Of a stretch of DNA of 43,108 bases, positions 1,040 to 41,836 are shown piece after piece. The notes under the pieces are model-generated. The model saw only the letters and a program-made list of their open reading frames with translations. It had not been told where the DNA came from and made no database searches. A program made the translations under genes and the position numbers. Each line of letters opens with the position of its first letter. Within the stretch, counting starts at the first letter, position 1. Source of the DNA: a virus; IMG/VR virus record IMGVR_UViG_3300002461_000252, positions 1-43,108 of that record. One strand, given 5' to 3'.

Positions 1040-1115
1040 GCCCCGGTAGCTCAATCGGTAGAGCAGTCGCATTGTAGGCGAACGGTCGGGGGTTCGACTC
1101 CTCTCCGGGGCACCA
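1040..1115 (+). tRNA. tRNA-Thr (anticodon UGU), CCA encoded
   Basis: Hand-folded cloverleaf: acceptor GCCCCGG/CCGGGGC, D arm GCTC..GAGC, anticodon stem GTCGC/GCGAA with loop ATTGTAG, T arm GGGGG-TTCGACT-CCTCT, then A-CCA. Confidence 0.8.
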
Positions 1116-2444: not shown

Positions 2445-2821
2445 CCCTCCCGGCCGACGACGAGCCGATCACGCTGAAGGAAGCCTCGGAGATATTCTTC
2501 CGCGGGCGCCGGTCGCCGGCTGTGCTGAAGAACCAAGCTGAGGCCGGCAACCTTGCTGTTTCCAAAATCGGCGGTAAATACTTCACGACGATAACTGACC
2601 TGAAGGTGATGGTGGAAAAATGCCGCGTCAAAGCAGAGGCCCCCATCTCTGGCTCGACAAAGACCGCGATCGGTGGACAATCATCGACCGAAAGCGCCGT
2701 ACTCGCACTCCGTTCTCTTCAGAGCAGCTTTCGGAAGCCGAAGGCGCGCTCAGCGACTACCTCACCGACAAGCACACGCCCGCGGTCAAAGACGACAACC
2801 CGCCACTCGCAGACCTATTGA
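2441..2821 (+). CDS. excisionase-like / HTH DNA-binding protein
   Basis: N-terminus ITLKEASEIF...LAVSKIGGKYFTTITDLKVMVEKC resembles the short HTH proteins found upstream of tyrosine integrases. The ORF overlaps int by 202 nt, so the true 3' end or function is uncertain. Confidence 0.55.
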   Translation: MTLPADDEPITLKEASEIFFRGRRSPAVLKNQAEAGNLAVSKIGGKYFTTITDLKVMVEKCRVKAEAPISGSTKTAIGGQSSTESAVLALRSLQSSFRKPKARSATTSPTSTRPRSKTTTRHSQTY

Positions 2822-10843: not shown

Positions 10844-11029
10844 ATGAACCACGACTCCATCGAGCAGATCGAGAAAGCTATCGCAGTATTGATGGATGAC
10901 AGCCTGCCGAAGGATGCCCGCGCACTTGTTGCCGAGGTTCTGATTGCGGATATTCAGCAGAGGTTTGGGCTTCCCGCAGCTCGGCTAGATACTGACGCTG
11001 GTATTGTTGGCCGCAAACACCTGTCCTGA
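10844..11029 (+). CDS. small hypothetical protein co-oriented with the methyltransferase (61 aa)
   Basis: AGGGA upstream of the ATG. The 3' end overlaps the convergent tailspike ORF by 45 nt. Confidence 0.45.
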   Translation: MNHDSIEQIEKAIAVLMDDSLPKDARALVAEVLIADIQQRFGLPAARLDTDAGIVGRKHLS

Positions 11030-12252: not shown

Positions 12253-13905
12253 TCAGATTTTCCCCGAAAGGCTTATCATTTGATAATCGGCGCCGAAAAA
12301 CGTTGCGTTATTGATGCCGTCTGCAAATTCAAGGGCCTGATAATAATGCACCCCGATAGCCGGTATCTTGGAGTACGAGGTAACGGGTATGCCCGCCGCC
12401 GTAGTGACGCCGTTTGCCAGCACGTTGGAAAGCGTGCTGGAAACGGCGGTCGCTGAATCTTCACCAATTCCGATGACCCCGTAGGCGTTTGTATTTGCAA
12501 TGCGGATGTTTGATTTTGTCGTGACGATGATACTGTCTTCCGAAAGACCGACAACGATCGTAACCCGGTTGCCGGCGGAGTTGTTAGCTTGGCGGGGAGT
12601 ACCAGAGGAATAGGTCCACGAAGCCGTGGAATCCCTAACTTCAGTTGAAACATTTACACGATTGTAAGCGTTCCAAACCCCCAAAAATCCAGCCGTGCCA
12701 CCTGCTGCGGTAGCCCCGAAAATAAAATCCAGTTGTGACGAACCGTTGCTCCGCGTGGTCCCAACGTAAGTTCCGCGCGAAGCGGCAGGACCGTTGGTAA
12801 TGGCGGCATTGTTAAGATAGATGCCGTTGACCATGACAAGAGCGGTGCCGGCCGAACGCGCCGTGTCGCTAGTCCAATCCGGCCCATGGCTCAGACGGAC
12901 GGTTCCAGCGTCGTTCCACACAAACCAGTCGTTGACCTTGCTGGCACCGATGGCCGCCGGGTTCTTGACCGTGTCTGTCGTCGCTACGGAGATTTCAGCA
13001 ACTGCTGTCGGGACCATATTCGTTCCGTCATAGAGCGGAACCATGTTTCCGACATAGGGAGTGTAATAAATCGTCGTCTTGGCGCTTTGCGTCGTCGTCA
13101 TGACTGGGACGCTGGTCGCCAGCGTCAACCGCCCCTGCGGCGGGAAATAGGACACGACAGCGCCAGTCTTGCCGTTGAGCGATGCCACGCCCGCAACACC
13201 ACCAGCAACCTGCGCGTCAACGTAGGCCGTTGTAGCAATTTGCGTGCTATTGTTGCTGGGTGCCGCGGTTGGTGCGGCAGGAACTCCCGTAAAAGTCGGA
13301 GATGCAATCGGAGCCTTTAGCGCGTCGTTTCCGTAGAGCTTCTGAACTGCCGTCAAGATCGAATCGGTCGCCGTCACCGTGCCTGTGCTGCTGGCGAACC
13401 CGGTCAGAACCTTAGCGATAACGGGAGCGTTGGTCAGCGTGGTTGCGTTTCCGACGCTGGTAACGTCTCCAGTAAGATTTGCGTTGGTGGTGACGTTGCC
13501 GGCGGTGAGGCCCGAGGCAGTTCCGGTCAGGTTGGTGGCAACACCAGAGGCTGGCGTCCCCAATGCCGGCGCCACAAATGTCTGCTGCCCGGCCCAGCTA
13601 TGCGCAGTCGAGAACACGTCCGCATTGAGCATGGCCGATGTAACTTTGGTGGCGCCGATGGCCGTCACGCCCGCAGCGGAAAGCGTCACATCGCCGGTGA
13701 GTGTCCGGCAGATCGGGGCGGCTGCGGATTGTCCGACCGCAAGCTGCGCCGAGGTGCAGAGCAACGAAGCATAGCCAGTTGTCCCCGGCCCTCTACCGAT
13801 CGCAAAGGCATTGGCCGTAACCGTGCCGGGGTTCTGCGCCAGTGCCGGAGAGACAATAAAAAAGGCCGCCGAAGCGACCGCGAAAAGCCTATGCAGGTAT
13901 CTCAT
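12253..13905 (-). CDS. tail fibre-like protein with a signal-peptide-like N-terminus (550 aa)
   Basis: TQIATTAYVDAQV fibre motif and T/A/G-rich repeats. N-terminus MRYLHRLFAVASAAFFIVSPALA-QN. Confidence 0.75.
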   Translation of the reverse strand: MRYLHRLFAVASAAFFIVSPALAQNPGTVTANAFAIGRGPGTTGYASLLCTSAQLAVGQSAAAPICRTLTGDVTLSAAGVTAIGATKVTSAMLNADVFSTAHSWAGQQTFVAPALGTPASGVATNLTGTASGLTAGNVTTNANLTGDVTSVGNATTLTNAPVIAKVLTGFASSTGTVTATDSILTAVQKLYGNDALKAPIASPTFTGVPAAPTAAPSNNSTQIATTAYVDAQVAGGVAGVASLNGKTGAVVSYFPPQGRLTLATSVPVMTTTQSAKTTIYYTPYVGNMVPLYDGTNMVPTAVAEISVATTDTVKNPAAIGASKVNDWFVWNDAGTVRLSHGPDWTSDTARSAGTALVMVNGIYLNNAAITNGPAASRGTYVGTTRSNGSSQLDFIFGATAAGGTAGFLGVWNAYNRVNVSTEVRDSTASWTYSSGTPRQANNSAGNRVTIVVGLSEDSIIVTTKSNIRIANTNAYGVIGIGEDSATAVSSTLSNVLANGVTTAAGIPVTSYSKIPAIGVHYYQALEFADGINNATFFGADYQMISLSGKI

Positions 13906-16337: not shown

Positions 16338-18980
16338 CTATTCTTCGCGGGCTCGGGTGCCGAGATAAGTCAACCGCGCAACGATGGCGCCGGCCTTGGC
16401 CGAATTCGTCGGCGCGGTGGCGAGTTGCCGGAACAGTTGCGCAGCGGCGGGGTTGGTCAGAAGATCGGCGATCTCAGCCACGTTGCCGCCCATGCGCCAT
16501 TGCTCGATACGCTGATTGATCTTGGAGGGCAGCTTCAGACCGCCGCTCGCAACCGACGAAAGCGCCTCAGCTACCGTGCCGCCGGTTTTCAGTCCGGCCT
16601 GCACTTCCTGATTGAACGCGGTTTGCGAGCCGATGCGTTGGCGCGAGCCTTGCGCCTCCAGCACGTTCAGAAACCGATCGAAGCCCTGATAGGCCTGTCC
16701 GCCCCGCAACGCGGTAACCGCAGCCTCCAAATTCGCGGCCTGTTGCGGATTGCCGCGGAGAACCGCGACAAATCCGGCTCCTCCGAATTCGTTGGCACCG
16801 CTTTGCAGCCGCTGCACTGCCTCATTAAACACACTCTCGACATGGGTGCGGACAAGCTGCTGTGCGACTTGCGGTCGCTGCTTCGCCAACGCTTCAATAG
16901 CGCTACCTATTTCACCAGCTGAACGCGGCAGGGGATTCTCTGGAAACAGCGCTGCAATTGCCTTCTTGGTCGATAGGTCTCGCTTGGCGAGATGCCCAAT
17001 CGGCGTTTGCTCAATACGTGCCAATCCATCCCTAGCAATGGCTACACTTTCCAGCCTGTCGCGAACGCCAGGGTACTGGCGCAATATATCTGCATTTTGC
17101 AAAAGCGCCTTACGAATGGCATCGGTTGAAAGGTCAGCGCCTTTCTTTGTCGCCTGATCCAAAACCTGTGTAACCAGATTTTGTTCAAAAGCTTCACGCG
17201 CCGCCTGGGAAGCAACGGAGTTAAAATCACGAACAGCGGACGGCCCGTTATTTTGGATTGCACCGGGCGCGCGCTCCGGCGGCATAACAAATCGATTATT
17301 AAACTGATCTCGCTCAATGATTTGACCCGGAACACGCGCTTTATCAAAAGCATTGAGCGGTTGCGAGGCGGCGCGGAAGTTTTCGCTGGCCTTGCCATAA
17401 GACGGCACGCGCTCAAGGGTTTGATCCAGAACTTGCTTGGCTTCCTGAAGCCGCATGACAGTCTGATTAGCGCCAGCCAACTTGGCTTGGCTGATAAGGT
17501 CGTCAATAGCCACTCTAGAGTTGTGTAGCCCCGCTACACTGGTATCCAGCGTTCCGTCTGGGCGCATCAGCGCCGATTTTGCAGCCTGTAGACCTTGGCG
17601 TACCGCTCCCTTCGCTGTGTCAAGAGCCGCGTCAATGTACTCAAGAACCGGCCCGGAATTAACTTGGGCAAATTCGGTTGGTCGCTCACCCACAATTGGC
17701 ATGCGCGTGGTTGGGTTGTTATCGTCAAACCACCTACCCTTGGCCGCCGCTCTTTCGGCTGGGTCCAGAATAATGGGAATATCGGGCCGATCGAGGTAAT
17801 GGGTCGTCACATCAGCTACACGATGACCGCCGTTAGTCGGGATGGTGGCCGGAGCATTGCGAGCTGCTGTATAATCTTGGTCCGCAAGTGCGGCTCTCAT
17901 ACCTTCGCGTCGGTCGTAAACGTTGCTCAAATCCTGCTGTATGACGTTCCCGGCGCGCTCGGGAGTTATGCGCGGGCCAGCCCGCCAGAGGGTGTCAGCC
18001 AGAATTTCTCCTTCTGGACTCTGGCGCATTATTTGGCGTGCGGTTTCACCAACAGCGGAGCCTATCTGGGACGGATCAAGGGGCGGCGGCGAAATCGTAT
18101 CAAACGCTTGTCGAGCCGCATCATCTACCTGCCCCGGCCGAGCCGCCATGAACGGACGAAGCTCGCCCGAGCCTTCGACAACCCGCTGCAGGTTGCCGAG
18201 ATTGGTTGCGCCGCCGGTGACATGCTGCACCGCCTCGGCCCGGGTGATCGGAAGGCCAAGGCCTTGCGCGTATTCAAACAGCCGCTCGGCTTCGTCGATC
18301 TGTGCCTGGTTTGCCCCGCGAGAGCCGCGCGAGACAGCCGCGCCGGCCGCGTTCGGAGCCGTGGCCCAGTGACCGGCCACGCCTCCTGCAATAGCAGCCC
18401 CTGCCCTTGCCCATGGCTCATAGGCCGTGCCTTCCGTGGCCTGCCCGGCGGCTTCCGACGCCAGCCCGGGGCCGACGCCGAGCGCTACAGCGTTGCGGGC
18501 CATGTTCCCGGGTCCAAGCAAGGCGGAAGGGACGAATTCGGCGCCAGATTGAACATATTTCTCTGGCGTCGTTTGCGGATCATATCTCAGTGGAGACGCG
18601 CTATGCGCCGCTTTCGATCCCCATTTTTCCAGTGCTCCGCGGGAAATAAGCGCGGTCTTGTCGTTTTCGGCCTGCACTTCTTCAAGCGGTCGCCCTTGAA
18701 CCTTTGATTGTCCCTTGGTGACTAAATCTTGAATGAACCCGGCGATGTCGGCGGGCGCTCCGGCCAGTCCGGCCACCCCTTTGTCGATACCGGAGACCGC
18801 AGCCTTCCCCAAGCCTAGCGCTACCTCCCCGGCCGATTTTGGGGTAAACTCGTCAAACGTAAGTGCGTTTGACTTGGCTTCCGCCTTCGGACCGATCACG
18901 ACTCTCGGCAGACCGTTGGCGCCCACAGGGACACCCCCCGCGGTCGTTCCGATCACGTCATCAAAGGTCAAAGCAGGCAT
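16338..18980 (-). CDS. large virion / ejection-type protein (880 aa)
   Basis: Longest ORF in the window, Ala/Gln-rich. Its position between the ejection-like proteins and the fibres matches P22-type layouts. Confidence 0.8.
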   Translation of the reverse strand: MPALTFDDVIGTTAGGVPVGANGLPRVVIGPKAEAKSNALTFDEFTPKSAGEVALGLGKAAVSGIDKGVAGLAGAPADIAGFIQDLVTKGQSKVQGRPLEEVQAENDKTALISRGALEKWGSKAAHSASPLRYDPQTTPEKYVQSGAEFVPSALLGPGNMARNAVALGVGPGLASEAAGQATEGTAYEPWARAGAAIAGGVAGHWATAPNAAGAAVSRGSRGANQAQIDEAERLFEYAQGLGLPITRAEAVQHVTGGATNLGNLQRVVEGSGELRPFMAARPGQVDDAARQAFDTISPPPLDPSQIGSAVGETARQIMRQSPEGEILADTLWRAGPRITPERAGNVIQQDLSNVYDRREGMRAALADQDYTAARNAPATIPTNGGHRVADVTTHYLDRPDIPIILDPAERAAAKGRWFDDNNPTTRMPIVGERPTEFAQVNSGPVLEYIDAALDTAKGAVRQGLQAAKSALMRPDGTLDTSVAGLHNSRVAIDDLISQAKLAGANQTVMRLQEAKQVLDQTLERVPSYGKASENFRAASQPLNAFDKARVPGQIIERDQFNNRFVMPPERAPGAIQNNGPSAVRDFNSVASQAAREAFEQNLVTQVLDQATKKGADLSTDAIRKALLQNADILRQYPGVRDRLESVAIARDGLARIEQTPIGHLAKRDLSTKKAIAALFPENPLPRSAGEIGSAIEALAKQRPQVAQQLVRTHVESVFNEAVQRLQSGANEFGGAGFVAVLRGNPQQAANLEAAVTALRGGQAYQGFDRFLNVLEAQGSRQRIGSQTAFNQEVQAGLKTGGTVAEALSSVASGGLKLPSKINQRIEQWRMGGNVAEIADLLTNPAAAQLFRQLATAPTNSAKAGAIVARLTYLGTRAREE

Positions 18981-19296
18981 GTGGCAGAACCTCGTTAAAG
19001 TCGTTCAGGTGGTCTTGTTTTTCGCCGTCGTTGTGTGGGGTATTCGGGAGCACCAGCTTCGCCCCGACGAAATTCCGAGTAACGGTCTTGCCTTGGGCAT
19101 CGTTGCCGTCATGGTCGTGGCGGTCTTCACCGTGATTCCGTGGCTGATATTCAAGATGATCGGCCAAGCCGTGTTCGATTTTCGCCGCTGGCGATCAAAG
19201 CCCGTCAGTGGGAAGCCCGTTGTCCCGGAGTTTCTTGATAACGGCGTCCCGCGCCGCCGGGTTGGCTTTGATCGCATTCCGCGCATTGGAAAGTGA
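18979..19296 (+). CDS. possible antisense-oriented 2-TM membrane protein (105 aa)
   Basis: VVQVVLFFAVVVWGI and LALGIVAVMVVAVFTVIPWLIF helices. Fills the only roughly 210-nt gap in the virion operon. Weak SD, and the 3' end overlaps the gene at 19195. Confidence 0.35.
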   Translation: MWQNLVKVVQVVLFFAVVVWGIREHQLRPDEIPSNGLALGIVAVMVVAVFTVIPWLIFKMIGQAVFDFRRWRSKPVSGKPVVPEFLDNGVPRRRVGFDRIPRIGK

Positions 19297-20730
19297 CTGG
19301 TCGATCTCCGGCTTGGTGAAGGGCACCTGCTTTGCTCCGTTGTCCTTCTGCCCGCTCTGCGCGCCCTTCAGGGCCTGCCCGTAAACCCCGGGATTGGCCT
19401 TCCGCCATTCCGTGAAGCTCTGCATCGGATCGGGAAGCGCCCGCAGTTGCTTTTCCGCATCCATGCGGTTGATTTCCTTGGTCGCGAGTTTGGTGGCGAT
19501 TTCCCCGCGGGCCATTTCATCACGGGTAAGGGCTTCCATCGTGTTCAGCGTGGCATCGCGAGCGGCCGGGTTTTGCGAAAGCGTTGGCAGCGATTTAAGG
19601 AACCCCTTGAACTCGATGTCCGAGGTCGAGCCGGACCCTTCGGCGCGTTGCTGAGGCGCAAGGCGCTGAACGATCGAACTGTAAGCCTGAACGTCGGACA
19701 ACCCTTCGATGTTGACGCCGAGCGCCTCCGCATAGGGGCCGATTGCCTCCTTGATGTTCGCCGCAGCGCCCTGCGACCCCATGCGCTGCGAAATCTCGCG
19801 CATGGAGTTGATGTCCACCATTTTTTTCTGGGCAGCCTGACCGCCCTCAATATAACCATTCCATCGCTTGGCCTGCCCCTTGCCAAACTCCTTTTCGAAT
19901 TCATTTTCGCCCTTGGTGTCTACGTTGACCTCGGTTTTCCCGGCGCGCTTTAGCTGCATCTCCATGTCAAGCAAACGCGGGTCTGCCTGCATCGCGCGGA
20001 GCGTTTCAATCCGCTCCGGCGGCTTCATGTTCTTGAAGGCCTCGCCGAGCAAAATCTTGGCGGTTTCCTTTTGTCCGGCCGGCAGGTTCGGATTCGCCAT
20101 GGCCTGAAGCAAAGTGGGGACGTGCTGCGCGCCAACCATGGGAGCCGCTGCGGGCTGCGCGGGCGCGGCTTGCGCTACCTGGGTGGGTGCTGGGCCCACC
20201 GGAGCGGCGCGCGCGTCAGTCGCCGTCTGCGGGGCAAGAGCGGCCATGCGGGTGGGCCTCGGCTCATACAGTCCGGCGGCCTCGGCCTCGTCATCGCCCC
20301 AGACCTTCGGTGTGGTAGCAACCGGCGTCCGATCCATCGCCATCGGTGCGGTTGCAGCCGGCACGTTCACCGGAGCGCCCGGCACCGGCATCGGATTGGA
20401 TGTCGGCGGGGCCGCGCTGGGCTGGGCGCCGTACAGGTTGCCGAGGCTGGTTTGGAAGTTCGCCGACGCCGCCTGCTCGAGCCCCTGCTTTTTCTGCTGC
20501 TCGGCCAGCGCCAGGAATTGCAGCGTATGCGTGATATCGCCCATGTCGGCGGTTTGCGCCGCGGCCTGACGATAATCCACGTTCCCGCTCGCCAATTGCT
20601 TGCCGAGATCGGACAGCTTTTGCTGAGCCTGCGCTTTCTTGAATACTTCCCCGAGCTGCGACAGCCCGCCTTGCAAATCGACCTGGGGCGACTGAAAAGC
20701 GCCGGGGAGCTGGAGCGGAGCGATCGCCAT
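19195..20730 (-). CDS. virion internal / ejection-type protein (511 aa)
   Basis: The ATG at 20730 overlaps the upstream stop (TGATG); the ORF-track start at 20739 is a GTG. Ala/Pro/Gln-rich central region. Confidence 0.8.
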   Translation of the reverse strand: MAIAPLQLPGAFQSPQVDLQGGLSQLGEVFKKAQAQQKLSDLGKQLASGNVDYRQAAAQTADMGDITHTLQFLALAEQQKKQGLEQAASANFQTSLGNLYGAQPSAAPPTSNPMPVPGAPVNVPAATAPMAMDRTPVATTPKVWGDDEAEAAGLYEPRPTRMAALAPQTATDARAAPVGPAPTQVAQAAPAQPAAAPMVGAQHVPTLLQAMANPNLPAGQKETAKILLGEAFKNMKPPERIETLRAMQADPRLLDMEMQLKRAGKTEVNVDTKGENEFEKEFGKGQAKRWNGYIEGGQAAQKKMVDINSMREISQRMGSQGAAANIKEAIGPYAEALGVNIEGLSDVQAYSSIVQRLAPQQRAEGSGSTSDIEFKGFLKSLPTLSQNPAARDATLNTMEALTRDEMARGEIATKLATKEINRMDAEKQLRALPDPMQSFTEWRKANPGVYGQALKGAQSGQKDNGAKQVPFTKPEIDQSLSNARNAIKANPAARDAVIKKLRDNGLPTDGL

Positions 20731-21497
20731 CAGCGCCACATCGGCATGGAATAGCCGCCAATCTGGGAATTCTGCGTCTGGCCGTAGTTACCAGCACCAC
20801 CGCCGCCGCCAAACCCGAACGCGCCGCCCAAGCTGCTCAGGCCGCCGCCGCCCATCAACATTTGCGCCCCGCCCATGATGCCGCCGAGCAGGTTGCTGGC
20901 ACCGCGCGCCTCGCCCTGGGCCTGCATCTGGTTCGCATTGGCGTTCCCCGAGGTGATATTGCCCTGCAGGCCGATCCGGTTGGTGGCGTCGGTCTGATAG
21001 AGGTTGGCAAGACCGGTATCGACCCCAGCCATGGCGCCCGCCGCGCCCATCGCCTTGGTGTCATATCCCCCAAGATTCGAAAGCCAGTTGTTCCATTCCT
21101 TGTTCTGCGCGTTCTGGCCGAACGTCAGCGCGTCGATGTCGGCGTTGCCGCTGTTGAGCATCCCGCCCGCCGCGCGGCGCCGGTTCAGCACGTCAATGCC
21201 GGCGTCAATGCCCTGCTGATAGCCCGGGCTGGTCGTGAAGGCCGCCTGTGCATTGGCGTTGCCGGTAGCGCCGTTCACCCCGAGTGCATCGGCGTACAGT
21301 CCAGAGCCGCGGTTGTAGAGGCTGGACAACGGCGCGAACTGGCCCTTGGCGCTCGCCAGCGCGTCCCTTGATCCGGTCATCCCGGCGTCGAGATAGCCGG
21401 TGCCGGCCTTGCCGTACTGGTCATACAGCGCCCGGTTTCTTTCCGCTGCTTCGCGCTCTGCACCGCCACCGAACAGGATGTCGAAGAATCCAGCCAT
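20730..21497 (-). CDS. Gly/Asn-rich virion internal protein (255 aa)
   Basis: Low-complexity, Gly-rich C-terminus (GGGGLSSLGGAFGFGGGGGAG). Operon context. Confidence 0.8.
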   Translation of the reverse strand: MAGFFDILFGGGAEREAAERNRALYDQYGKAGTGYLDAGMTGSRDALASAKGQFAPLSSLYNRGSGLYADALGVNGATGNANAQAAFTTSPGYQQGIDAGIDVLNRRRAAGGMLNSGNADIDALTFGQNAQNKEWNNWLSNLGGYDTKAMGAAGAMAGVDTGLANLYQTDATNRIGLQGNITSGNANANQMQAQGEARGASNLLGGIMGGAQMLMGGGGLSSLGGAFGFGGGGGAGNYGQTQNSQIGGYSMPMWR

Positions 21498-21498: not shown

Positions 21499-21642
21499 TT
21501 ACACCTCGGTCCTTAGAATTTTCACGATGGCCTCCAGCGCCTTCAGCCACGCATACCAGTCGGGATTGATCAGACCGTCCTTGTTCACGACAGACACATC
21601 CGGCCCCGGAAGGGGCGGAAGCTTTTGCGATGTAGTCGGCAT
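21499..21642 (-). CDS. small ORF (47 aa), below the ORF-track cut-off
   Basis: ATG overlaps the upstream stop (TAATG). Its own stop is 1 nt before the next ATG. Translates to MPTTSQKLPPLPGPDVSVVNKDGLINPDWYAWLKALEAIVKILRTEV. Confidence 0.5.
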   Translation of the reverse strand: MPTTSQKLPPLPGPDVSVVNKDGLINPDWYAWLKALEAIVKILRTEV

Positions 21643-23060
21643 TATTTCCCCAGCACCTGCAGGTCCAAGTCGCCGCCCATCAGCGCGACGTGGACCGGAT
21701 CTGATATCTGGAACCTAAACTTCGCGCCCTGCGGTCCGACATGGCCCAGATTATTCACCGTGACCTTGGTGTTTCCGATCATCTGCTTGCCGAGCCGGCG
21801 CAGCCACGGAATCGACCACGTAAGCCCGTTGTCGCGGGAGATCGAAATCTCAATGGACGGATCAGTTTCGATCGGATCAATGCCGGTCGCCACGCCGACG
21901 CCTACCGACATGAACAAATCCAGCCGGTTGATCCGCGCGCCGTTCGGGAAATTGCCCATTGGCCCAGTTTCGAGGATGGCCACCAGCGGCTGGCTTATTT
22001 CGGTCTGTGCAACCGGATCGATCTGGATGATGTTGGCCGAAAGCGCATCTCCGACATACCATTTGCCGTTGAACTTGTGGCCGCCGATGCCGCGCCAGCG
22101 CTGCTGCTGATAGCTCTTCCGCTCCTGCCACGTCGAGGTATTGATATCGTATTCCCACGACCACGTTGGCGATTGCACCACAAGGAAGGAATGCCCATCC
22201 GCGACATGGACCGACATCAGGATGGTGGTCTTGTCGGCTACCGCCTGTATCAAGCGGTCCAGATCGGGCGTGCTGATTTTCGAAAGCTGGTAGCCCGTCA
22301 GCTTGTGGACGCCGAAGTCCGAACCGACCAGAAAAAGCCCTTGGCCCCAACCGTCTTCATATCCCGCGATGCAGTAGGGCCCGGCGATCCCCATGTCGAT
22401 GGTTGTGATATAGGAGAAAACAAATCCCGTGTCGTTGATCCCGCCCCAGACTTCCAGGGATTCCGAGCCGCAGGCCAGCATTTGACCGTTGGGCAGCGGC
22501 ACCGAACGGAACAGCGTATCGGGCTTGCTCTCAGCGGTGGCAGAATTCAGCGTATTGATGTTCGTCGAATTCACGTCCGACGATCGCATTTTCCCATCGC
22601 CATAGGTGTAGATGAAAAAGCCCCTGATGTTGGTGACCGAATTGGGCTGCCCCACGTCAACATCAGGATATGCGCTCACAGAGCTATTCGTCACCACGAA
22701 CGCGCCGTCGCCCGGAGCAACCGCCACCAGATCGGGCAACGCCGCGTTGTTGCGCGCGAAGATCACCGGTTGGGTGCCGGGCAATGTCCCTGTCAGCACC
22801 GTCTCGGCACCCCCTGATGTACCGTGCCGGACGGCCTTGCCGGACCATGCCGAAAACAGCGTGTTGCCGATCGCGTGCATCCCCCGAAACCCGGCTTGAA
22901 CCGTCGTTCCGAATGCGATCAGCCCCGGCACCCGTCGAAGCACCAGTTTTGATCCCGCGGTAGCCCCAAGCGATTCCGCGTAGACGTTGATGAGCCGGCC
23001 GCCGCTCTCTTGCGGATAGGCGCCGGGCGCGGTTGAGGTGGGAAGGATGATGGCTGTCAT
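21642..23060 (-). CDS. tail hub / head-completion protein (472 aa)
   Basis: Its position after the small head-completion genes and its size are the same as P22 gp10. This is positional inference only. Confidence 0.8.
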   Translation of the reverse strand: MTAIILPTSTAPGAYPQESGGRLINVYAESLGATAGSKLVLRRVPGLIAFGTTVQAGFRGMHAIGNTLFSAWSGKAVRHGTSGGAETVLTGTLPGTQPVIFARNNAALPDLVAVAPGDGAFVVTNSSVSAYPDVDVGQPNSVTNIRGFFIYTYGDGKMRSSDVNSTNINTLNSATAESKPDTLFRSVPLPNGQMLACGSESLEVWGGINDTGFVFSYITTIDMGIAGPYCIAGYEDGWGQGLFLVGSDFGVHKLTGYQLSKISTPDLDRLIQAVADKTTILMSVHVADGHSFLVVQSPTWSWEYDINTSTWQERKSYQQQRWRGIGGHKFNGKWYVGDALSANIIQIDPVAQTEISQPLVAILETGPMGNFPNGARINRLDLFMSVGVGVATGIDPIETDPSIEISISRDNGLTWSIPWLRRLGKQMIGNTKVTVNNLGHVGPQGAKFRFQISDPVHVALMGGDLDLQVLGK

Positions 23061-31932: not shown

Positions 31933-32118
31933 TCAGCCCTCTCCGCTATCAGGTGATCGCAATTCAGTCTTTCGATGATGCCAGTTTTCCAACCACTCAC
32001 GCGATGCTTCCAGTCGCGCCAGGTATTCCGCCTTCGCCCTGCTAATCGGCAGGCCGGAGGTTTCCACGTCTAGGACTGGTTTCTCCCGTACCGTGCCGTC
32101 TGAGGGGTCGCGTATCAT
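31933..32118 (-). CDS. hypothetical protein (61 aa)
   Basis: The ATG at 32118 overlaps the upstream stop (ATGA). Confidence 0.6.
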   Translation of the reverse strand: MIRDPSDGTVREKPVLDVETSGLPISRAKAEYLARLEASREWLENWHHRKTELRSPDSGEG

Positions 32119-32789
32119 TGCATGGTCCTCAATCCGTATTTTTCCAGCAACTCCGGCGGGGCTCGGCATGATGGCGATGTCGGATCATTGCCGTGCCCCT
32201 TGGGCCAGTTGTTGTAGCGTTTGTAGCTCTCTAGGATCGCCGGCCAATCAACGCCAGATGTATCGACAACACCCACGGCAGCACCCTTTTTCGGCGCCCA
32301 CTCCTCGGAATTGAGTAGCCATTTATCCCAAGCAAAATTCCAGTTTTTGAAAACCGTGCCCTTCGCTCGATGGTGCGAACCGAATTTTTGCAGCTCCCGT
32401 TCGGCCTGGTCAGCCCCCAGCTTTCGGCAAGCGGCAATCCAGCGGATTTCATCCGGCCTCCAGCCGTCCGGCAATTGAGCGCCCCTACCTTCTTTCTTTT
32501 TATTCTTATCTAAAGATATAGAGGGCGGCGTTACTTCGTTACGGTTCGTTACGGTTTCGTTACGGTTCGTTACGCTTGGCTTGACGGTTTCCGCGTTACA
32601 CGGCGTTACGGTTTCGTTACGCTTCGTTACGCTTTTCCGGTCGCGATACCGTTGCTGCCGCTCTGCGTTTGACGACCGAAAGGAGGTTGATGCAACGCCA
32701 GCCGCAAATATCTCAGCGGCAATCGCGCCGGCTTCCCCAGCAGGGACGCCAGCGGCTATCATGCGGTTGATCAGGTCGGACAGTATCAT
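32115..32789 (-). CDS. putative replication initiation protein with iterons inside its gene (224 aa)
   Basis: The ATG at 32789 overlaps the upstream stop (ATGA). The central segment VTKRNETVT..VTNRNETVTNRNEVT is encoded by the CGTTAC array. The analogy to lambda O/ori is inference. Confidence 0.75.
   Translation of the reverse strand: MILSDLINRMIAAGVPAGEAGAIAAEIFAAGVASTSFRSSNAERQQRYRDRKSVTKRNETVTPCNAETVKPSVTNRNETVTNRNEVTPPSISLDKNKKKEGRGAQLPDGWRPDEIRWIAACRKLGADQAERELQKFGSHHRAKGTVFKNWNFAWDKWLLNSEEWAPKKGAAVGVVDTSGVDWPAILESYKRYNNWPKGHGNDPTSPSCRAPPELLEKYGLRTMQ
32529..32630. repeat. iteron array: nine CGTTAC cores with mostly 10-11 bp phasing
   Basis: Cores start at 32529, 32537, 32547, 32558, 32568, 32594, 32604, 32615 and 32625. 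The extended unit is TTCGTTACGG(T). Confidence 0.85.
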
Positions 32790-32995
32790 TGTTCCGTGTG
32801 ATGCCCCTGTACTGCCTTGCCACGAACCGCCAAGGCGGCTTCGAGCGCCAAACGAGCCTGCCATAGCCAGTTTGCCCCGGCGCCGGTCTCCTTGAGAGCC
32901 CGCTTGTTTTCGTCGCTCTCCCATAGGATACGCAGGGCATCCGCAGCGGCTTCTATCTCAGCGGCTGGGACTTGGCTTCCGTCAACGATGTTCAT
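32786..32995 (-). CDS. hypothetical protein (69 aa)
   Basis: TGATG and ATGA coupling at its two ends. Confidence 0.65.
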   Translation of the reverse strand: MNIVDGSQVPAAEIEAAADALRILWESDENKRALKETGAGANWLWQARLALEAALAVRGKAVQGHHTEQ

Positions 32996-35994: not shown

Positions 35995-36188
35995 GCCGCG
36001 CCCCACAGATTTGTGGTTCCAATGTGAACGCGATGAACGGATTGCGGCTGAAAAGTGGTCAATGCACAGAGCAAAATTGACCACCCACAAGGTTGCAATG
36101 TACGAAACCGGACGGTTGTGTTTTTATGCTCTTGCGCCTTGTGCGACAGGAGAACATCAAAACAATGAGCGAGATAATTGGCGGTCAT
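35991..36188 (-). CDS. hypothetical protein (65 aa)
   Basis: ATGA overlaps with the cro-like gene upstream and the 37-aa ORF downstream. Weak codon bias. Confidence 0.45.
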   Translation of the reverse strand: MTANYLAHCFDVLLSHKAQEHKNTTVRFRTLQPCGWSILLCALTTFQPQSVHRVHIGTTNLWGAA

Positions 36189-36418
36189 ACGCGAGCCTCA
36201 GCAGGAGCGCGCGCAGCCAAAATCATCAACTTTTCCGCATTCAAACCGGCGGCCAAGGCTCGCTCAGTTCCCAAAACGGAAGACCACCATTCGGCGGGGA
36301 TACTGTCTCTTTGCCCCCATTTGGTCACAGCCGGAACGCTGGCACCGATATCCGACGCCATGGATGACAATGAAGGCCAGAGGCCGATGACTTCGCGGAA
36401 AGAGGTGATTTCTGTCAT
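36185..36418 (-). CDS. Cro-like small DNA-binding protein, first gene of the minus-strand arm (77 aa)
   Basis: ASDIGASVPAVTKWGQRDSIPAEWW is an HTH-like block seen in YdaS/Cro-type proteins. Diverges from the cI-like gene across the operator region. Confidence 0.7.
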   Translation of the reverse strand: MTEITSFREVIGLWPSLSSMASDIGASVPAVTKWGQRDSIPAEWWSSVLGTERALAAGLNAEKLMILAARAPAEARV

Positions 36419-36430
36419 GTCACCTCGTAT

Positions 36431-36502
36431 AGGACAATCGGTCCTTAAATGCAAGGCCATTCTGTCCTTAGACGATAGACTTTCTTTAGGACATACTGTC
36501 CG
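36431..36502. promoter_or_regulatory. tripartite operator region (OR-like) with divergent promoters
   Basis: AGGAC-AATCG-GTCCT (36431-45), AGGCC-ATTCT-GTCCT (36454-68) and AGGAC-ATACT-GTCCg (36488-502). On the minus strand, TTGCAT-N17-TATACG (36454..36426) brackets the first site. Confidence 0.7.
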
Positions 36503-36503
36503 C

Positions 36504-36818
36504 ATGGCGGATGCAGAAACAGCTGCTCAACATAAACAAGGCTTTACGGCCCGCGTGAAGGCGGCCAGAACCGCTCGCGCGTTGAAGCAATGGGAACTCG
36601 CCGACGCACTCGGAATGACACAGGACCGATATAAGCAATATGAAACCCGGTCCTATCTGCCACCACATCTGATTGCCCGCTTTTGCCTGATTTGCAGGGT
36701 CAACCCGGAATGGCTCATGACCGGCAACGGCAAGATGGCTCCCCAGGAGCGCCAGGAGGCCGCCAGCGAGGCCCCGCCCCTTCAGGTCAGCAAAGCCCGC
36801 AAGAAGTCCGCCGCTTAG
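36504..36818 (+). CDS. XRE/cI-type HTH repressor (104 aa)
   Basis: FTARVKAARTARALKQWELADALGMTQDRYKQYETRSYLPPHLIARFCLICRVNPEWLMTG is a classic HTH_3 fold signature. Monocistronic and followed by a terminator. No SD before the ATG. Confidence 0.8.
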   Translation: MADAETAAQHKQGFTARVKAARTARALKQWELADALGMTQDRYKQYETRSYLPPHLIARFCLICRVNPEWLMTGNGKMAPQERQEAASEAPPLQVSKARKKSAA

Positions 36819-36864: not shown

Positions 36865-36893
36865 GCCCGGTTGCTCACGCAGCCGGGCTTTTT
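36865..36893 (+). terminator. intrinsic terminator after the repressor gene
   Basis: GCCCGG-TTGCTCACGCAG-CCGGGC-TTTTT. Confidence 0.75.
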
Positions 36894-37362: not shown

Positions 37363-37565
37363 TGAGCGTCAACCTTTGTGACAAGGGCTGCGGTCAACTC
37401 ACCGTGAACCCCGAAAACGAATACGGCGAGTTCATTTGCGCCGAATGCGAGCAGAGCGCCGCCGAGAGCGCTTACGAGCGCTACTGTGAGGATTTTCACG
37501 ACGGCGGATCAACAAGCTTCCGCTCGCTGCAAGACCAGCAAATCGAGGCGATGAAGCTCAAGTAA
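37362..37565 (+). CDS. small Cys-containing protein (67 aa)
   Basis: TGATG coupling. Contains CDKGC...CAEC. Confidence 0.6.
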   Translation: MSVNLCDKGCGQLTVNPENEYGEFICAECEQSAAESAYERYCEDFHDGGSTSFRSLQDQQIEAMKLK

Positions 37566-37604: not shown

Positions 37605-38378
37605 ATGACCGAATGGCTCACCGACGCAAACGGCAACAAGTGCAGTGTTGAATACTTCGACACCAAAGAGGCCGCACAGGCGGCACTGGATAGCCTGAAG
37701 AATTGCGACGGTTGTATCAACTGCTCGGACTGCTCGGACTGCTCGGACTGCTCGCGCTGCTCGGACTGCTCGGGCTGCTCGGACTGCTCGGACTGCTCGG
37801 ACTGCTCGCGCTGCTCGGACTGCTTGGGCTGCTTGGGCTGCTCGCGCTGCTCGGGCTGCTCGGACTGCTCGCGCTGCTCGGACTGCTCGGGCTGCTCGCG
37901 CTGCTCGCGCTGCTCGGGCTGCTCGGGCTGCTCGCGCTGCTCGGGCTGCTCGGGCTGCTCGGGCTGCTCGGGCTGCTCGGGCTGCTTGGGCTGCTCGGGC
38001 TGCTCGCATGTCGCGAAGCTGTACAACAAGAAAAATTTGCAAGGCGACCCGGAAAAGGCGAGCGAACTCACCGGCTCGCCGCCGGTCCCGACCATACCAA
38101 ACATCCATCAGACGGTCTACGCCGCGGCTTCAAATCCGAAGGCGCTGAACATGAACAGTTGGCATACGTGCGACAACACGCATTGCTGGGCCGGATGGGT
38201 TGTCACCTTGGCTGGGCCGGAAGGCAAGGCGCTGGAATCATTCTTCGACACGCCTCTGGCCGCGATGAAAATTCTTGACGCCAGCTCACCGCATCGAGTT
38301 TCTCCGGTTCGTTTTTTTGAACAGAACGCCGATGCGCTGCGGCACATGAAGGCCATGGCTGATATCGAAGCCGCCTGA
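37605..38378 (+). CDS. protein with 34 consecutive Cys-x-x triplets flanked by unique N- and C-terminal domains (257 aa)
   Basis: Continuous ORF: 33 unique aa, then CDG-CIN-(CSD/CSR/CSG/CLG)x31-CSH, then 122 unique aa including WHTCDNTHCWAGW. Confidence 0.75.
   Translation: MTEWLTDANGNKCSVEYFDTKEAAQAALDSLKNCDGCINCSDCSDCSDCSRCSDCSGCSDCSDCSDCSRCSDCLGCLGCSRCSGCSDCSRCSDCSGCSRCSRCSGCSGCSRCSGCSGCSGCSGCSGCLGCSGCSHVAKLYNKKNLQGDPEKASELTGSPPVPTIPNIHQTVYAAASNPKALNMNSWHTCDNTHCWAGWVVTLAGPEGKALESFFDTPLAAMKILDASSPHRVSPVRFFEQNADALRHMKAMADIEAA
37722..38009 (+). repeat. 32 tandem copies of a 9-bp unit (TGCTCGGAC and variants)
   Basis: Units counted by hand: 288 bp in phase with the CDS. Variants are TGCTCGCGC, TGCTCGGGC, TGCTTGGGC and TGCTCGCAT. 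Confidence 0.95.
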
Positions 38379-38383: not shown

Positions 38384-38402
38384 GGGGCTAGCCCCTCTTT
38401 TT
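38384..38402 (+). terminator. weak terminator-like palindrome after the repeat gene
   Basis: GGGGCTAGCCCC followed by TCTTTTT. The stem is short (4-5 bp). Confidence 0.3.
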
Positions 38403-39068: not shown

Positions 39069-39325
39069 GCGAATACGAGACCACCTTGGAAGCCGTTCGC
39101 GCTGAAATGGCTGGGCAGCCCGCCGAAGTTCAAATCGAATATCGGATTGACTGTATCGTTCGTGAGTTGGACGAACTTTGCGCCATGGCGAACAACGCCG
39201 AGACGGTCGATCTCGTTGACGCCCAGCGCATCGGGATAGGTCAGGTCATCTCCCGCGCGCAACTCATTCAATCGTTCCTTATGGCCCGCAAGCCTGCGCC
39301 GCCGCATATCCGGAGGGTGTCGTGA
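39065..39325 (+). CDS. hypothetical protein (86 aa)
   Basis: Coupled to both neighbours. Confidence 0.65.
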   Translation: MSEYETTLEAVRAEMAGQPAEVQIEYRIDCIVRELDELCAMANNAETVDLVDAQRIGIGQVISRAQLIQSFLMARKPAPPHIRRVS

Positions 39326-40005
39326 GCAACTACGAAACCGCACAAGACCTGTTTGACGCCCTCTGTATGCCGTTTGCTGCCGAGGAAATTGACTGGCGCG
39401 TAGGTTCCACCACGGCAGACAAAACCAAGGGCATGGCACTTGCCTACCTTGACGCCCGCGCCGTGATGGACCGCCTTGACGCCGTATGCGGCGCGGACGG
39501 TTGGCAATGCAACTACAGCCCGGCCCCTGGTGCCGCTCTGATCTGCAACATCGGCGTTCTGATGCCGAACGGGCAATGGGTTTGGAAGGCAGACGGCGCT
39601 GGCGCGACGGACGTTGAGGGCGAAAAGGGCATGATGTCCGATGCCCTGAAGCGAGCCGCCGTTCGGTTCGGCGTTGGTCGTTACCTTTATGAGACGGATT
39701 CGCCTTGGGTTGCTCTAGAGGCTGCTGGCCGCTCCTACAAGATCGTCGCGACGGAACGAAAGAAGCTGGACGAGGCACACGACAAGGCCGCGTCGAAAGT
39801 GGGTTGGGGCGGCCCTACTGCGGTTGCTTCCTATCGTTTTCTTCTGCGCGTCGTTCAGGAAACTGTTTCTCAGCCTAGCGACGCGGAAGCGTTCTTGGAG
39901 AAATACAAAAGCATGTTCCCGCTGCTCCGCGTCGGGATGAGGCGGCATCTCGAAAGCTACCTCGGCAATATCGGATCAACCTCGCACCAACAGGCGGCAG
40001 AATAG
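39322..40005 (+). CDS. Rad52/22-family single-strand annealing protein
   Basis: [22 protein letters not shown]...[19 protein letters not shown] are the conserved Rad52-type blocks. GTG start with a GGAGGG SD. Confidence 0.8.
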
Positions 40006-40006: not shown

Positions 40007-40510
40007 ATGGCCGGATCAGTCAACAAAGTTATCCTTATCGGCAACCTCGGAAAAGACCCCGAAATGCGCCGCACTCAGGACGGCAAGCCAATCGCCAACC
40101 TCACGGTTGCGACCTCCGAAAGCTGGCGCGACAAGTCGTCAGGCGAGCGCAAAGAGAAAACCGAGTGGCACCGTGTGGTGATTTTCAGCGAAGGGCTCTG
40201 CAAGATCGCTGAGCAGTACCTGAAGAAGGGCTCGAAGGTTTACCTGGAGGGTTCGTTACAGACCCGCAAGTGGACGGATCAGGCCGGCGTCGAAAAGTAT
40301 TCGACCGAGGTCGTCCTACAGCAGTTCGGCGGTGTGCTGACAATGCTTGACGGCCCGGCTAAGGCCGCAAGCGACGATGAACACCATGACCAGCGGCCAA
40401 TCAGTGAGCGAGCCGCTCCGAAGCGACCGGACCCGATTTCCAGCGGCCCCGGACACGTCCGTCACAACGACATAAACGACGATATTCCTTTCAGTGCGGA
40501 GTTCCGATGA
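40007..40510 (+). CDS. ssb: single-stranded DNA-binding protein
   Basis: [16 protein letters not shown]...[11 protein letters not shown]-fold signature and a C-terminal DDIPF tail. Confidence 0.95.
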
Positions 40511-40902
40511 GCCGCGCAACCCTCGTTCTTGTCAGTCCCGACGTTCGCGACCGCGCCACCCGCTGGATTGCGCAGGCGAAGCCGGGAACCCGTGTGGAAT
40601 TCAAGGAAGCCAAACGCTCGCTTCCGCAGAACGACCGCTTCTGGGCGATGCTGACAGACGTTGCAACACAGGTTGTGTGGCATGGCCGCAAACTCACGCC
40701 GGATGACTGGAAATACATCTTCCTGGATGCGCTCAAGCGCGAGGTCCGCGCGGTGCCAAACATCGACGGTACTGGCTTTGTGAACATCGGCCGCTCGTCA
40801 TCAGATCTGAGCAAGGCCGAAATGTCGGACCTACTCGAATTGATTGCTGCCTTCGGCGCAAACCACGGCGTCACGTTCCATGAGCCGGAGACGGCAGTAT
40901 GA
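40507..40902 (+). CDS. ninB: NinB/Orf-family recombination mediator
   Basis: [36 protein letters not shown]...[14 protein letters not shown] aligns by eye with lambda NinB. Confidence 0.85.
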
Positions 40903-41471
40903 TCTGCACATTTTGTCAGAAAGACTTTCAGCGGTCTTACCGGATCAGCGCGGCACGGGCAGCGCGCCCGCAATTCTGCTCTAAGGCGTGCTACGGCCTG
41001 CATCATGCCGCCAAGAGTGCGGCGGCCTTCGCTGGCAAGTTTTGGGCGCGCCTCAAACCGGCTAACGAGCGCGGCTGTCGAGAATGGAGCGGAAGGACGT
41101 ATTTCCGCTATGGGCTGGTGGATCTCGCCAACAAGCCCCAGATGGCGCATCGCGTCGCCTATTATCTTGCTACCGGCCAAGAGCCGGGAGAATTGGATGT
41201 TTGCCACACGTGCGATAATCCGCCCTGCTGCACACCAGAGCATCTGTGGCTGGGCACCCACCTGGAAAACATGCAGGACCGGACGGCCAAGGGCCGCAGC
41301 AACCCGCCAAAACTGCGCGGCGAGGCACACGGCCAAGCAAAACTAGACGCCGCCGCAGTGCGGGCCATCAGGGCCAGTTCGGAGCGAGATAGCAAGTTGG
41401 CTTTGCAGTACGGCGTGACGGCAGCGAACATTTATCGCGTAAAGGCCCGCATCTCATGGAGGCACGTCTGA
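40899..41471 (+). CDS. HNH endonuclease with a C-terminal HTH
   Basis: AHRVAYYLATG...VCHTCDNPPCCTPEHLWLGTHLENMQDR motif. Confidence 0.85.
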   Translation: MICTFCQKDFQRSYRISAARAARPQFCSKACYGLHHAAKSAAAFAGKFWARLKPANERGCREWSGRTYFRYGLVDLANKPQMAHRVAYYLATGQEPGELDVCHTCDNPPCCTPEHLWLGTHLENMQDRTAKGRSNPPKLRGEAHGQAKLDAAAVRAIRASSERDSKLALQYGVTAANIYRVKARISWRHV

Positions 41472-41836
41472 TGTCTCGCTCGACTGAGGAGTGGATCGGA
41501 AAGAACGACGACACGGCTATACCACCGCGCGTCAAGATCCGGGTTTTCGAGAAACACAATGGATATTGCCAGGACTGCGAATTGCAGATCAGAGGCAAGT
41601 TGCTGCCGGCTTACGACCACATCATAGCCCTGATCAACGGCGGCCAGAACCGTGAGAGCAATATCACGCTTCTTTGCGTGCCATGCCATGCGGTCAAGAC
41701 GCGCGCAGACGTTGCCGAGAAGTCAGTGACTGCCCGCAAGCGCGCCAAAGCTATCGGGGTCAAGAAGCCACGCACCATCACACGCTGGCGCCGGTTCGAC
41801 GGATCAATTCGAGAAGCCGGACGTACCCGGTGCTGA
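41471..41836 (+). CDS. HNH endonuclease (HNHc type)
   Basis: CQDCE...YDHIIALINGGQNRESNITLLCVPCHAVKT. The ATG overlaps the upstream stop (TGATG). Confidence 0.85.
   Translation: MSRSTEEWIGKNDDTAIPPRVKIRVFEKHNGYCQDCELQIRGKLLPAYDHIIALINGGQNRESNITLLCVPCHAVKTRADVAEKSVTARKRAKAIGVKKPRTITRWRRFDGSIREAGRTRC

Follow-up and report, generated by a model that had tools for sequence, protein, structure and literature searches.

A phage early-region gene with a ladder of 34 Cys-Xaa-Xaa units and its family of alternative repeat modules

The gene described here lies in the IMG/VR virus record IMGVR_UViG_3300002461_000252, of which we analysed one strand of 43,108 nucleotides (the window, by which we mean this whole stretch; all positions are counted from its first letter). 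It is encoded on the plus strand and specifies a protein of 257 residues, in the middle of which a cysteine returns at every third residue 34 times in succession, an arrangement that we refer to as the cysteine ladder. Our preferred reading, which as a whole is tentative and held with slightly more doubt than assurance, is that this is a translated early gene of a three-part family, that the ladder serves as a folded scaffold, probably of the metal-thiolate type, with a length varied by slippage, and that the protein is an early host-interaction factor. We are very confident of the translation frame, the family membership, the modular architecture, the copy-number variability and the early-region context, taken together, while a folded scaffold, metal binding and a role in host interaction are what we infer beyond them.

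In the scheme that we propose, the protein consists of an N-terminal cap (N-cap) built from a beta-hairpin and a helix, a tandem-repeat module, and an all-alpha C-terminal domain of about 95 residues carrying a W-H-x-C-x3-H-C site. Through replication slippage or unequal recombination, the 9-bp array that encodes the ladder would gain, lose and rearrange units, the frame staying intact throughout, and selection would keep a cysteine at every third residue, followed by a small or polar residue and then by a turn-forming or charged one. In the reducing cytoplasm the ladder would most likely be held together by metal-thiolate coordination of the Zn-type CxxC kind, and the protein may serve as an early takeover or counter-defence factor with a quickly evolving repeat surface and length.

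The ladder gene and its 9-bp array

The gene and its parts are laid out as follows.

37605..38378, plus strand: complete ladder gene (N-cap, Cys ladder, linker and C-terminal domain), 257 codons plus stop; from the list of open reading frames (ORFs) and PHROG matches
37605..37703, plus strand: N-terminal cap domain, residues 1-33 (MTEWLTDANGNKCSVEYFDTKEAAQAALDSLKN); conserved in type-A relatives, modelled with AlphaFold2
37704..38009, plus strand: Cys ladder, residues 34-135, 34 consecutive Cys-x-x units; from the sequence
37721..38006, no strand assigned: in-frame 9-bp minisatellite, consensus CTGCTCGGG; from Tandem Repeats Finder
38010..38084, plus strand: linker, residues 136-160 (VAKLYNKKNLQGDPEKASELTGSPP...); gapped and poorly conserved in alignments A1 and A2, variable in relatives
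38085..38375, plus strand: all-alpha C-terminal domain, residues 161-257; from PHROG 31265, profile searches and AlphaFold2
38160..38186, plus strand: W-H-T-C-D-N-T-H-C signature, residues 186-194, a candidate metal or active site; invariant columns of A1 and A2

A preliminary description of this stretch had noted an ORF with 33 N-terminal residues, 34 cysteines at period 3 and 122 C-terminal residues, and this is what we find. The ladder reads CDG-CIN-(CSD/CSR/CSG/CLG)x31-CSH, with its 34 cysteines at a strict period of three. Its second position is occupied by Ser in 29 units, by Leu in three, and by Asp and Ile in one each, and its third position by Gly (15 units), Asp (10), Arg (7), Asn (1) and His (1). 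The 122-residue C-terminal region that follows begins with VAKLYNKK and includes WHTCDNTHCWAGW.

At the DNA level, the 32-copy in-frame minisatellite that had been described is recovered by Tandem Repeats Finder as 31.8 copies of period 9, with 90% matches, 0% indels and a score of 432; besides a short 10/21-bp array at 32535-32635, it is the sole such array in the window. Two degenerate units, TGCGACGGT and TGTATCAAC, head the array, and the census of its units (TGCTCGGGC 11 times, TGCTCGGAC 10 times, TGCTCGCGC seven times, TGCTTGGGC three times and TGCTCGCAT once) agrees with the earlier statement that variation falls nearly all in the third codon (GAC/GGC/CGC/CAT), to which TCG>TTG changes are added. 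As had likewise been pointed out, all six reading frames are free of stops across the array and give rise to spurious ORFs of 175-202 amino acids, among them a 202-residue 'EQPEQP' and a 175-residue 'AARAAR' product on the minus strand and an 'LLGLLG' product on the plus strand.

The preliminary description had also reckoned with an assembly that collapses arbitrarily in the repeat. The longest exact repeat inside the array is 50 nt, so that ordinary reads or k-mers above 50 can resolve it, and an arbitrary collapse of the 34-unit array is unlikely.

A large family with alternative repeat modules

Two PHROGs of unknown function cover most of the protein: PHROG 15341 matches residues 5-141 (E 1.5e-21) and PHROG 31265 residues 161-257 (E 4.7e-27). 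A word-indexed search with the C-terminal region returned 225 homologues, and a profile built from 68 sequences (alignment A1; a second alignment, A2, holds 30) matched 1794 clusters at 50% identity with E<=1e-3, of which 1229 reached E<=1e-10. In a profile scan of genomes, matches were found in Alpha-, Beta- and Gammaproteobacteria, Bacteroidota, Acidobacteriota, Cyanobacteria, Planctomycetota and Patescibacteria, and many members of the family reside in prophages of complete bacterial genomes. Judged by this homology, the protein with its W-H-x-C-x3-H-C domain belongs to a phage and prophage family that is large, widespread and uncharacterised. The flanking parts, which had been called unique, are hence shared with a very large family (at least 1794 clusters), while the statement that no described family covers the protein holds, given that there is no Pfam, NCBIfam or PADLOC match and that only the two PHROGs of unknown function apply. 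Scans of the whole protein and of each of its parts against Pfam, NCBIfam and PADLOC gave no meaningful match (for the window protein, no Pfam at E<=10), the matches to AP2 and SPOR (E about 0.1) and to Tarp (E 0.85) being dismissed. PADLOC-DB was searched with the protein, two relatives and six neighbouring small ORFs, and PDB sequences with the protein and with profile A1, with no match in the former and nothing significant in the latter. A search of the literature on Cys-every-third repeats in phages yielded nothing beyond a paper on heterocycloanthracin and the meaning of PF27784, both taken up below.

The full-length homologues share the start 'MTxW[LI]xD'. In the C-terminal domain, W186, H187, C189, H193, G197 and W198 are invariant in both A1 and A2, as are a few Gly, Ala and Glu positions, and C194 is nearly so. 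The AlphaFold2 model of this domain has seven short helices, with a mean predicted local distance difference test score (pLDDT) of 86 and a predicted template modelling score (pTM) of 0.76, and places the H/C/H/C cluster in the loop preceding the helix WAGWVVTL; the C-region model starts with 20 residues at pLDDT 58-59. A Foldseek search of BFVD with the model matched the homologue of phage FL-1 alone, and the model of the full protein had no Foldseek neighbour in the PDB.

What precedes the C-terminal domain differs across the family. We classified the N-termini of 329 family sequences as follows.

96 of 329: Cys ladder
65 of 329: pentapeptide repeats (PF00805)
30 of 329: other N-termini, including LRR-like (leucine-rich repeat-like; P0221, P0235, P0247, L060) and DUF4116 repeats (P0270)
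129 of 329: N-terminus too short to classify (truncated calls, contig-edge fragments and proteins consisting of the C-terminal domain only)
9 of 329: C-domain signature not recovered with the search pattern

Here and below, L### labels relative loci and P#### relative proteins. PF00805 is matched by the relatives P0113, P0094, P0204, P0233 and P0216, and is not matched by the window protein itself in the Pfam scan. The caps that precede ladders come in two types that can be aligned with each other: type A, 'W[LI]xDxxGNKCSVEYFGSxEAAxxALxSL', in which N11 is invariant among the relatives, and type B, 'IFKxYxEFxxRxDKxxNGVS...GCWNC'. For the type-A cap AlphaFold2 predicts, at pLDDT 90-94, a beta-hairpin (4-6/12-14) and a helix (21-29).

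The ladder loci L005, L006, L017 and L039 and the pentapeptide loci L025, L034, L044 and L047 have homologous Erf-like and RecE-like genes at an equal distance downstream, and the ladder and pentapeptide forms therefore occupy the same genomic slot. Because relatives carry pentapeptide, LRR-like and DUF4116 repeats in the position of the ladder, and because ladder and pentapeptide share a slot, we think that the ladder is a folded scaffold or rod and not a random linker.

The closest known systems in this respect are the pentapeptide proteins of Ralstonia phages RSK1 (ORF34, BAO04699.1) and RsoP1IDN (RsoP1IDN_4, AUG85443.1), which are annotated as 'putative pentapeptide repeat protein' and contain a homologous W-H-x-C-x3-H-C domain at 44-54% identity. 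They share with the ladder proteins the plan of a small N-cap, a tandem array of variable length and the C-terminal domain, as well as the position in the early region, upstream of recombination or replication genes. They differ in the repeat itself, which is A(D/N)LxG (PF00805, a right-handed quadrilateral beta-helix), in the type of N-cap, and in belonging to a separate C-domain subfamily. The transfer of a DNA-mimic surface from pentapeptide proteins to the ladder was considered and rejected, since the sign of the ladder's net charge varies.

The pentapeptide arrays of L040, L047, L045/L046 and L009 are near-perfect tandem repeats with anything between about 6 and over 40 pentapeptides. As these arrays also vary widely, rapid repeat turnover belongs to the whole family and not to the ladder alone. 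Xanthomonas sp. NCPPB 1128 carries two identical pentapeptide-type copies 37 kb apart.

The reading frame of the ladder and its length variation

In the window and in 32 complete loci of relatives, N-cap, ladder and C-terminal domain are collinear in a single frame. The serines of the ladder are encoded by TCG in the window, L005, L011, L014, L017 and L023, by TCC in phage FL-1, L019, L020 and L039, and by TCT in L004, while AGC is used in L008 and L037 and AGT in L026 and L056. Since the TCN and AGY codons are not interconvertible by a synonymous step, their use in different loci argues that the ladder is conserved as protein rather than as DNA. In ladders whose DNA is not repetitive (L031, L021, P0210, P0155 and P0206) cysteine still stands at every third residue and the other two positions have drifted, and old ladders mix TGC and TGT as Cys codons. 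Position 3 is held by D, G, R, N, Y, S or H across the ladders; Ala is absent from it and Val rare, both being one mutation away. Inside each ladder locus the codons are homogeneous, as would be expected from concerted evolution through slippage or unequal exchange. With high confidence, we take the Cys frame to be the real coding frame and to be under selection at the protein level. The choice of the C-x-x frame in the preliminary description is thereby borne out, both by the in-frame joins to conserved N- and C-terminal domains in dozens of relatives and by the occurrence of TCN together with AGY serine codons.

The suggestion that the array is a length-variable locus finds ample support among the relatives. 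Ladders span 4-65 units with a median of 13, copy numbers derived from short-read assemblies calling for caution. With its 34 units the window falls into the upper tenth, which is long but below the record, as 46 (L011), 48 (L056), 56 (L014) and 65 units (L020, in two runs) are seen. P0011 and P0012, whose C-terminal domains are 96% identical, have 6 and 14 units, respectively. Between L003 and L004, which come from two samples, there are 11 differences in 712 aligned nt, 10 of them within the 132-nt ladder and one in the 580-nt flank, and L005 and L006, likewise from two samples, have identical ladders of 26 units. Going by these comparisons, the array is fast-evolving yet not chaotic. Variability rests on comparison among these other relatives, a near-identical relative of this phage not having been found in the metagenome scan.

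Structure and chemistry of the ladder

By reading of the sequence, no signal peptide is evident in the N-terminus. Because none is apparent, a disulfide-bonded native state would be unlikely, and with disulfides unlikely, metal-thiolate coordination would be indicated. The old ladders P0237 and P0246 consist of blocks of about 5-10 CxxC units separated by short linkers, a block structure that may hint at discrete folding units.

The best match among PDB sequences (phmmer) for three independent ladders, those of the window, P0210 and P0155, is TmAFP of Tenebrio molitor (1EZG), at a non-significant E of 0.012-0.029. This protein is a Cys-rich beta-helix with 12 residues per coil and thus a Cys-periodic solenoid, and the match spans nearly its whole chain. 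It differs from the ladder in that its Cys recurs at every 6th residue, that it carries the TCT ice-binding motif and that its disulfides are made in an oxidising compartment; for the ladder, AlphaFold2 predicts no beta-helix. For P0210 and P0155, Zn-binding CXXC, LIM, SWIM and PHD-type domains rank after TmAFP, again without significance, and weak ladder matches to the CXXC domains of TET3 and KMT2B are found as well. Metallothioneins and CXXC zinc fingers resemble the ladder in being about one-third Cys, accompanied by Ser and Gly, and CXXC domains have the CxxCxxC spacing of Zn ligands. However, their spacing is an irregular mixture of C-x-C, C-C and C-x-x-C at fixed lengths, as opposed to a strict period-3 array of 4-65 units, and they give no significant match; for the window protein, neither Pfam nor NCBIfam returned a metallothionein. 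A different kind of likeness concerns the DNA. In Plasmodium falciparum MSP1 block 2, 9-bp units encoding tripeptides vary in copy number and order between isolates and keep the frame, as they do here, and MSP1 chains are among the weak PDB sequence matches. Block 2 is nevertheless part of a eukaryotic surface antigen under antibody selection, is rich in Ser, Gly and Ala, and bears no relation in sequence or context to the ladder.

Several results weigh against a folded, metal-bound scaffold in an early host-interaction factor. Over residues 47-146 the AlphaFold2 pLDDT is below 50 and no secondary structure is predicted, which fits disorder as well as a metal-dependent fold, and searches of Pfam and of PDB sequences gave no significant match to metal-binding families. 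The net charge of the ladder ranges among relatives from negative to strongly positive (e.g., D11/R22 in L014), and no higher-order period that would correspond to a coil length was found in its side chains. As regards the rest of the protein, a Foldseek search of the PDB with the model of the C-terminal domain gave no neighbour (best E 2.7), and ORF clustering in 58 loci revealed no conserved adjacent partner gene. Finally, the equivalence of ladder-type and pentapeptide-type proteins is positional, their C-terminal domains being distinct sequence subfamilies; since these subfamilies can be told apart, the module swap would be old rather than frequent.

With respect to side-chain order, matching charge classes are deficient at a lag of 4 units in the diverged ladders (z -3.1), and, when all ladders are taken, opposite charges are in excess at a lag of 2 units (z 3.1) and of 4 units (z 2.1); both signals are weak and confounded by higher-order repeats at the DNA level.

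Disorder over the ladder would be the natural state if it were a neutral, tolerated low-complexity expansion, that is, a selfish minisatellite serving as a disordered linker between two functional domains, which we consider unlikely. The low pLDDT over residues 47-146 fits such a linker, as do the span of 4-65 units, with some relatives functioning with only 4-6, a position 3 that varies freely among D, G and R, and the homogeneity of codons within each locus that recent slippage predicts. A neutral linker would, however, hardly retain period-3 Cys in ancient, non-repetitive ladders with mixed TGC and TGT codons (L031, L021, P0210 and P0155), nor would it be expected to reach Ser via two unconnected codon families or to lack Ala and nearly lack Val at position 3. 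Moreover, the slot is otherwise held by well-folded solenoids (pentapeptide, LRR).

An improbable alternative of another kind is that metal chemistry is the function itself, and that the ladder is a metallothionein-like sponge for Zn, Cu(I), Cd or Fe, or a carrier of Fe-S, during infection, with a C-terminal domain that only anchors or regulates it. Its 33% Cys with Ser and Gly is a composition typical of metallothioneins, the weak PDB matches are to Zn domains of the CXXC, LIM and PHD kinds, and CxxCxxC is the classical spacing of Zn (CXXC finger) and Fe-S ligands. Yet there is no significant match to a metallothionein or Fe-S family, some ladders have only 4-6 units, and Cys-free pentapeptide, LRR and DUF4116 repeats fill the same slot, which is hard to square with metal chemistry as the function.

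The early region and a possible role in host interaction

The window represents the genome of a temperate, lambdoid-style phage whose host is probably Bradyrhizobium. The following features surround the ladder gene.

36093-36815, plus strand: helix-turn-helix (HTH) regulator, upstream of the ladder gene
36865..36888, plus strand: terminator-like hairpin (10 pairs, 8 of them G-C, followed by a T-run), a consensus match only, between the HTH regulator and the block of small genes that holds the ladder gene
39322-40002, plus strand: Erf
40007-40507, plus strand: SSB
40507-40899, plus strand: NinB

With the HTH regulator upstream and Erf, SSB, NinB and two HNH endonuclease genes (40899-41468 and 41456-41833) downstream, the context is consistent with the placement in an early operon that had been proposed. 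Among relatives, Erf-like or Sak4-like annealing proteins, a RecE-like exonuclease, SSB and DNA methyltransferases recur 2-3 kb downstream, and HTH regulators upstream. Virulent phages have homologues as well: the T7-like lytic Ralstonia phage RsoP1IDN encodes its copy as the 4th gene, before primase, helicase and DNA polymerase, the record of phage Bakoly opens with it, as gene 1, and RSK1 has it among its small early genes. The early regions of lambda, P22 and T7 are the usual place of host-takeover and counter-defence genes.

In its boldest form our preferred reading would say more than this, namely that the ladder is an unprecedented Zn or Fe-S thiolate rod or solenoid whose length is set by a minisatellite, and that phages use it, joined to a novel all-alpha H/C/H/C domain and interchangeably with a pentapeptide beta-helix, during the initial minutes of infection in order to bind or block some target in the host, a defence or DNA-handling complex for instance. 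In this full form we regard it as somewhat unlikely, though conceivable.

The protein could instead protect a lysogen, as a prophage defence or superinfection-exclusion protein in which the repeat is the sensor and the W-H-x-C-x3-H-C domain the effector, a proposal to which we assign a low probability. A variable repeat sensor joined to a constant small domain is the logic of many immune proteins, the repeat turns over rapidly, and many members lie in prophages of complete bacterial genomes. However, there is no PADLOC match, homologues occur in the early region of strictly lytic T7-like and other virulent Ralstonia phages, and the gene sits within an early lytic transcription unit beside recombination genes and not in a moron-like island.

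Directly upstream of the ladder gene lies the gene for a 66-residue protein (37365-37562, plus strand) that resembles a zinc ribbon in its CxxxC...CxxC pattern, MSVNLCDKGCGQ...FICAECEQ, and that PHROG, Pfam and PADLOC searches left without a match. Directly after the stop of the ladder gene, at 38384-38402, the palindrome GGGGCTAGCCCC is followed by TCTTTTT, a weak terminator-like element that the scan missed since, with room left for a proper loop, its stem is shorter than 5 pairs. No Rfam RNA element was found around the ladder gene.

Resemblance to bacteriocin precursors

Among the described uses of Cys repeats with a period of three, the closest is that in thiazole/oxazole-modified microcin (TOMM) precursors. 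The heterocycloanthracin/sonorensin precursors have a repeating Cys-Xaa-Xaa unit whose number varies between strains (Haft 2009, PMC2674419), and in a 2026 bacteriocin survey PF27784 is the detection rule for sonorensin. Like the ladder, these precursors combine tandem Cys-Xaa-Xaa units with indels of whole tripeptides between strains, and they are often missed by gene callers. They are, however, short, consist of a leader and a C-terminal core, and are matured by a cyclodehydratase, a docking protein and a dehydrogenase, whereas the ladder of the window is internal (residues 34-135 of 257) and stands between two domains that are folded in the AlphaFold2 models.

It is very unlikely that the ladder is a substrate of the kind found in peptides that are made on the ribosome and modified after translation (RiPPs), on which a host YcaO/TOMM cyclodehydratase would make thiazol(in)es or oxazol(in)es as in heterocycloanthracin, sonorensin and microcin B17, or a decoy for such enzymes. 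What speaks for it is the Cys-Xaa-Xaa hallmark of heterocycloanthracin with its strain-variable copy number, together with one relative, P0107, that bears a precomputed PF27784 tag and matches TIGR03601 weakly. This match, though, is confined to the repeat region and, at 18.3 bits, stays below the cut-off of 35, and the window protein has no TIGR03601 match. Among the large window ORFs scanned, there was no YcaO-type cyclodehydratase or other RiPP enzyme, in a scan confined to the phage genome. The family, moreover, extends over many phyla. With a score below the cut-off, an internal ladder, a conserved 122-residue region after it and pentapeptides that can replace it, we rejected membership in the heterocycloanthracin/sonorensin group.

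Gene-calling errors at ladder loci

The exact 257-residue sequence is missing from a collection of about 15 billion proteins. For the same locus, RefSeq has WP_291869709.1 (P0001; Bradyrhizobium sp., 43,572-bp contig), a call of 113 amino acids that starts at a TTG after the ladder, and a second call, P0273, starts at a TTG within the ladder and has 130 amino acids. About half of the homologues in databases are similar N-truncated calls with alternative start codons just past the ladder. In Flavobacterium phage FL-1 (KY421186.2; L002, 3533-4349), which carries a type-B homologue with a 36-unit ladder, the GenBank record annotates an out-of-frame 'VAPIAP' ORF over the ladder and calls only a 74-residue fragment of the C-terminal domain. 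That the repeat misleads gene callers, as anticipated from its open frames, is evident from these three cases, two with a truncated product and one with the wrong frame.

Two loci show irregularities of their own. The C-terminal domain of FL-1 is split by a frameshift (WHSCETT | CRAGWVV), which may be a sequencing error or indicate a pseudogene. In L007 / L070 (IMGVR_UViG_3300031902_000007, 62 kb; 3881-4369) an in-frame stop lies ahead of a 13-unit ladder and the N-cap is not joined to it; this stop could reflect a truncated allele, an assembly frameshift or a collapsed repeat.

That the Cys frame is untranslated, or the array an assembly artefact, and that the real gene is the C-terminal 113-130 residues as in RefSeq, is hardly credible: the Prokaryotic Genome Annotation Pipeline (PGAP) and another caller do start after or inside the repeat, and a contig ends inside the ladder in 10 of the 42 ladder-bearing loci, but the reading frame of the Cys ladder invariably also covers the conserved N-cap and the C-terminal domain, conservation at the protein level extends across codon families, no exact repeat inside the array exceeds 50 nt, and L005 and L006 share an identical 26-unit ladder in two samples.

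Other features of the window

Elsewhere in the window we find the following.

2620-3669, plus strand: integrase, tyrosine-type
1040-1115, plus strand: tRNA-Thr(TGT), from the tRNA scan, 1.5 kb from the integrase gene
minus strand: large terminase, portal and major head genes
32115-32924, minus strand: replication-initiator-like gene with putative internal iterons; PHROG 2509 and 1032, E about 3e-4 to 9e-4 (weak)
3830-4624, 40899-41468 and 41456-41833, plus strand: three HNH endonuclease genes

The tRNA-Thr(TGT) may be phage-borne or mark an attachment site. As it is the only tRNA found in a scan of the window, there is no phage tRNA-Cys. Inside the ORF 32115-32924, positions 32535-32635 hold about 9 copies of the 10-bp unit TTCGTTACGG (also scored as 21-bp units), which look like origin iterons embedded in an initiator gene, as in lambda O. 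The HNH genes at 40899-41468 and 41456-41833 adjoin and overlap by 13 nt, and with the third they make three HNH genes in one 43-kb phage. In the structural module, four minus-strand ORFs of 472-880 amino acids (16338-18980, 12253-13905, 19195-20739 and 21642-23060) have no Pfam match, and the 880-residue ORF, which alone of the four was scanned against PHROGs, has none there either. The neighbouring 421-residue ORF at 10985-12250 has a domain of the right-handed beta-helix type; it probably encodes a tail spike or depolymerase.

Implications

The family to which the ladder protein belongs comprises at least 1794 clusters, sits in the early region of phages over many phyla, and is uncharacterised, with a conserved domain that has no detectable structural neighbour. 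Gene calling has hidden the ladder from databases, and one relative, P0107, bears a bacteriocin Pfam tag purely through its repeat. Repeat-aware gene calling is hence needed for the W-H-x-C-x3-H-C family.

If the ladder folds around metals, it would constitute a new repeat architecture whose length can be tuned in steps of three residues, which would be of interest to structural biology and to protein design. If the protein is a takeover or counter-defence factor, a constant domain that exchanges ladder, pentapeptide, LRR-like and DUF4116 modules would exemplify, in compact form, modular and fast-evolving conflict.

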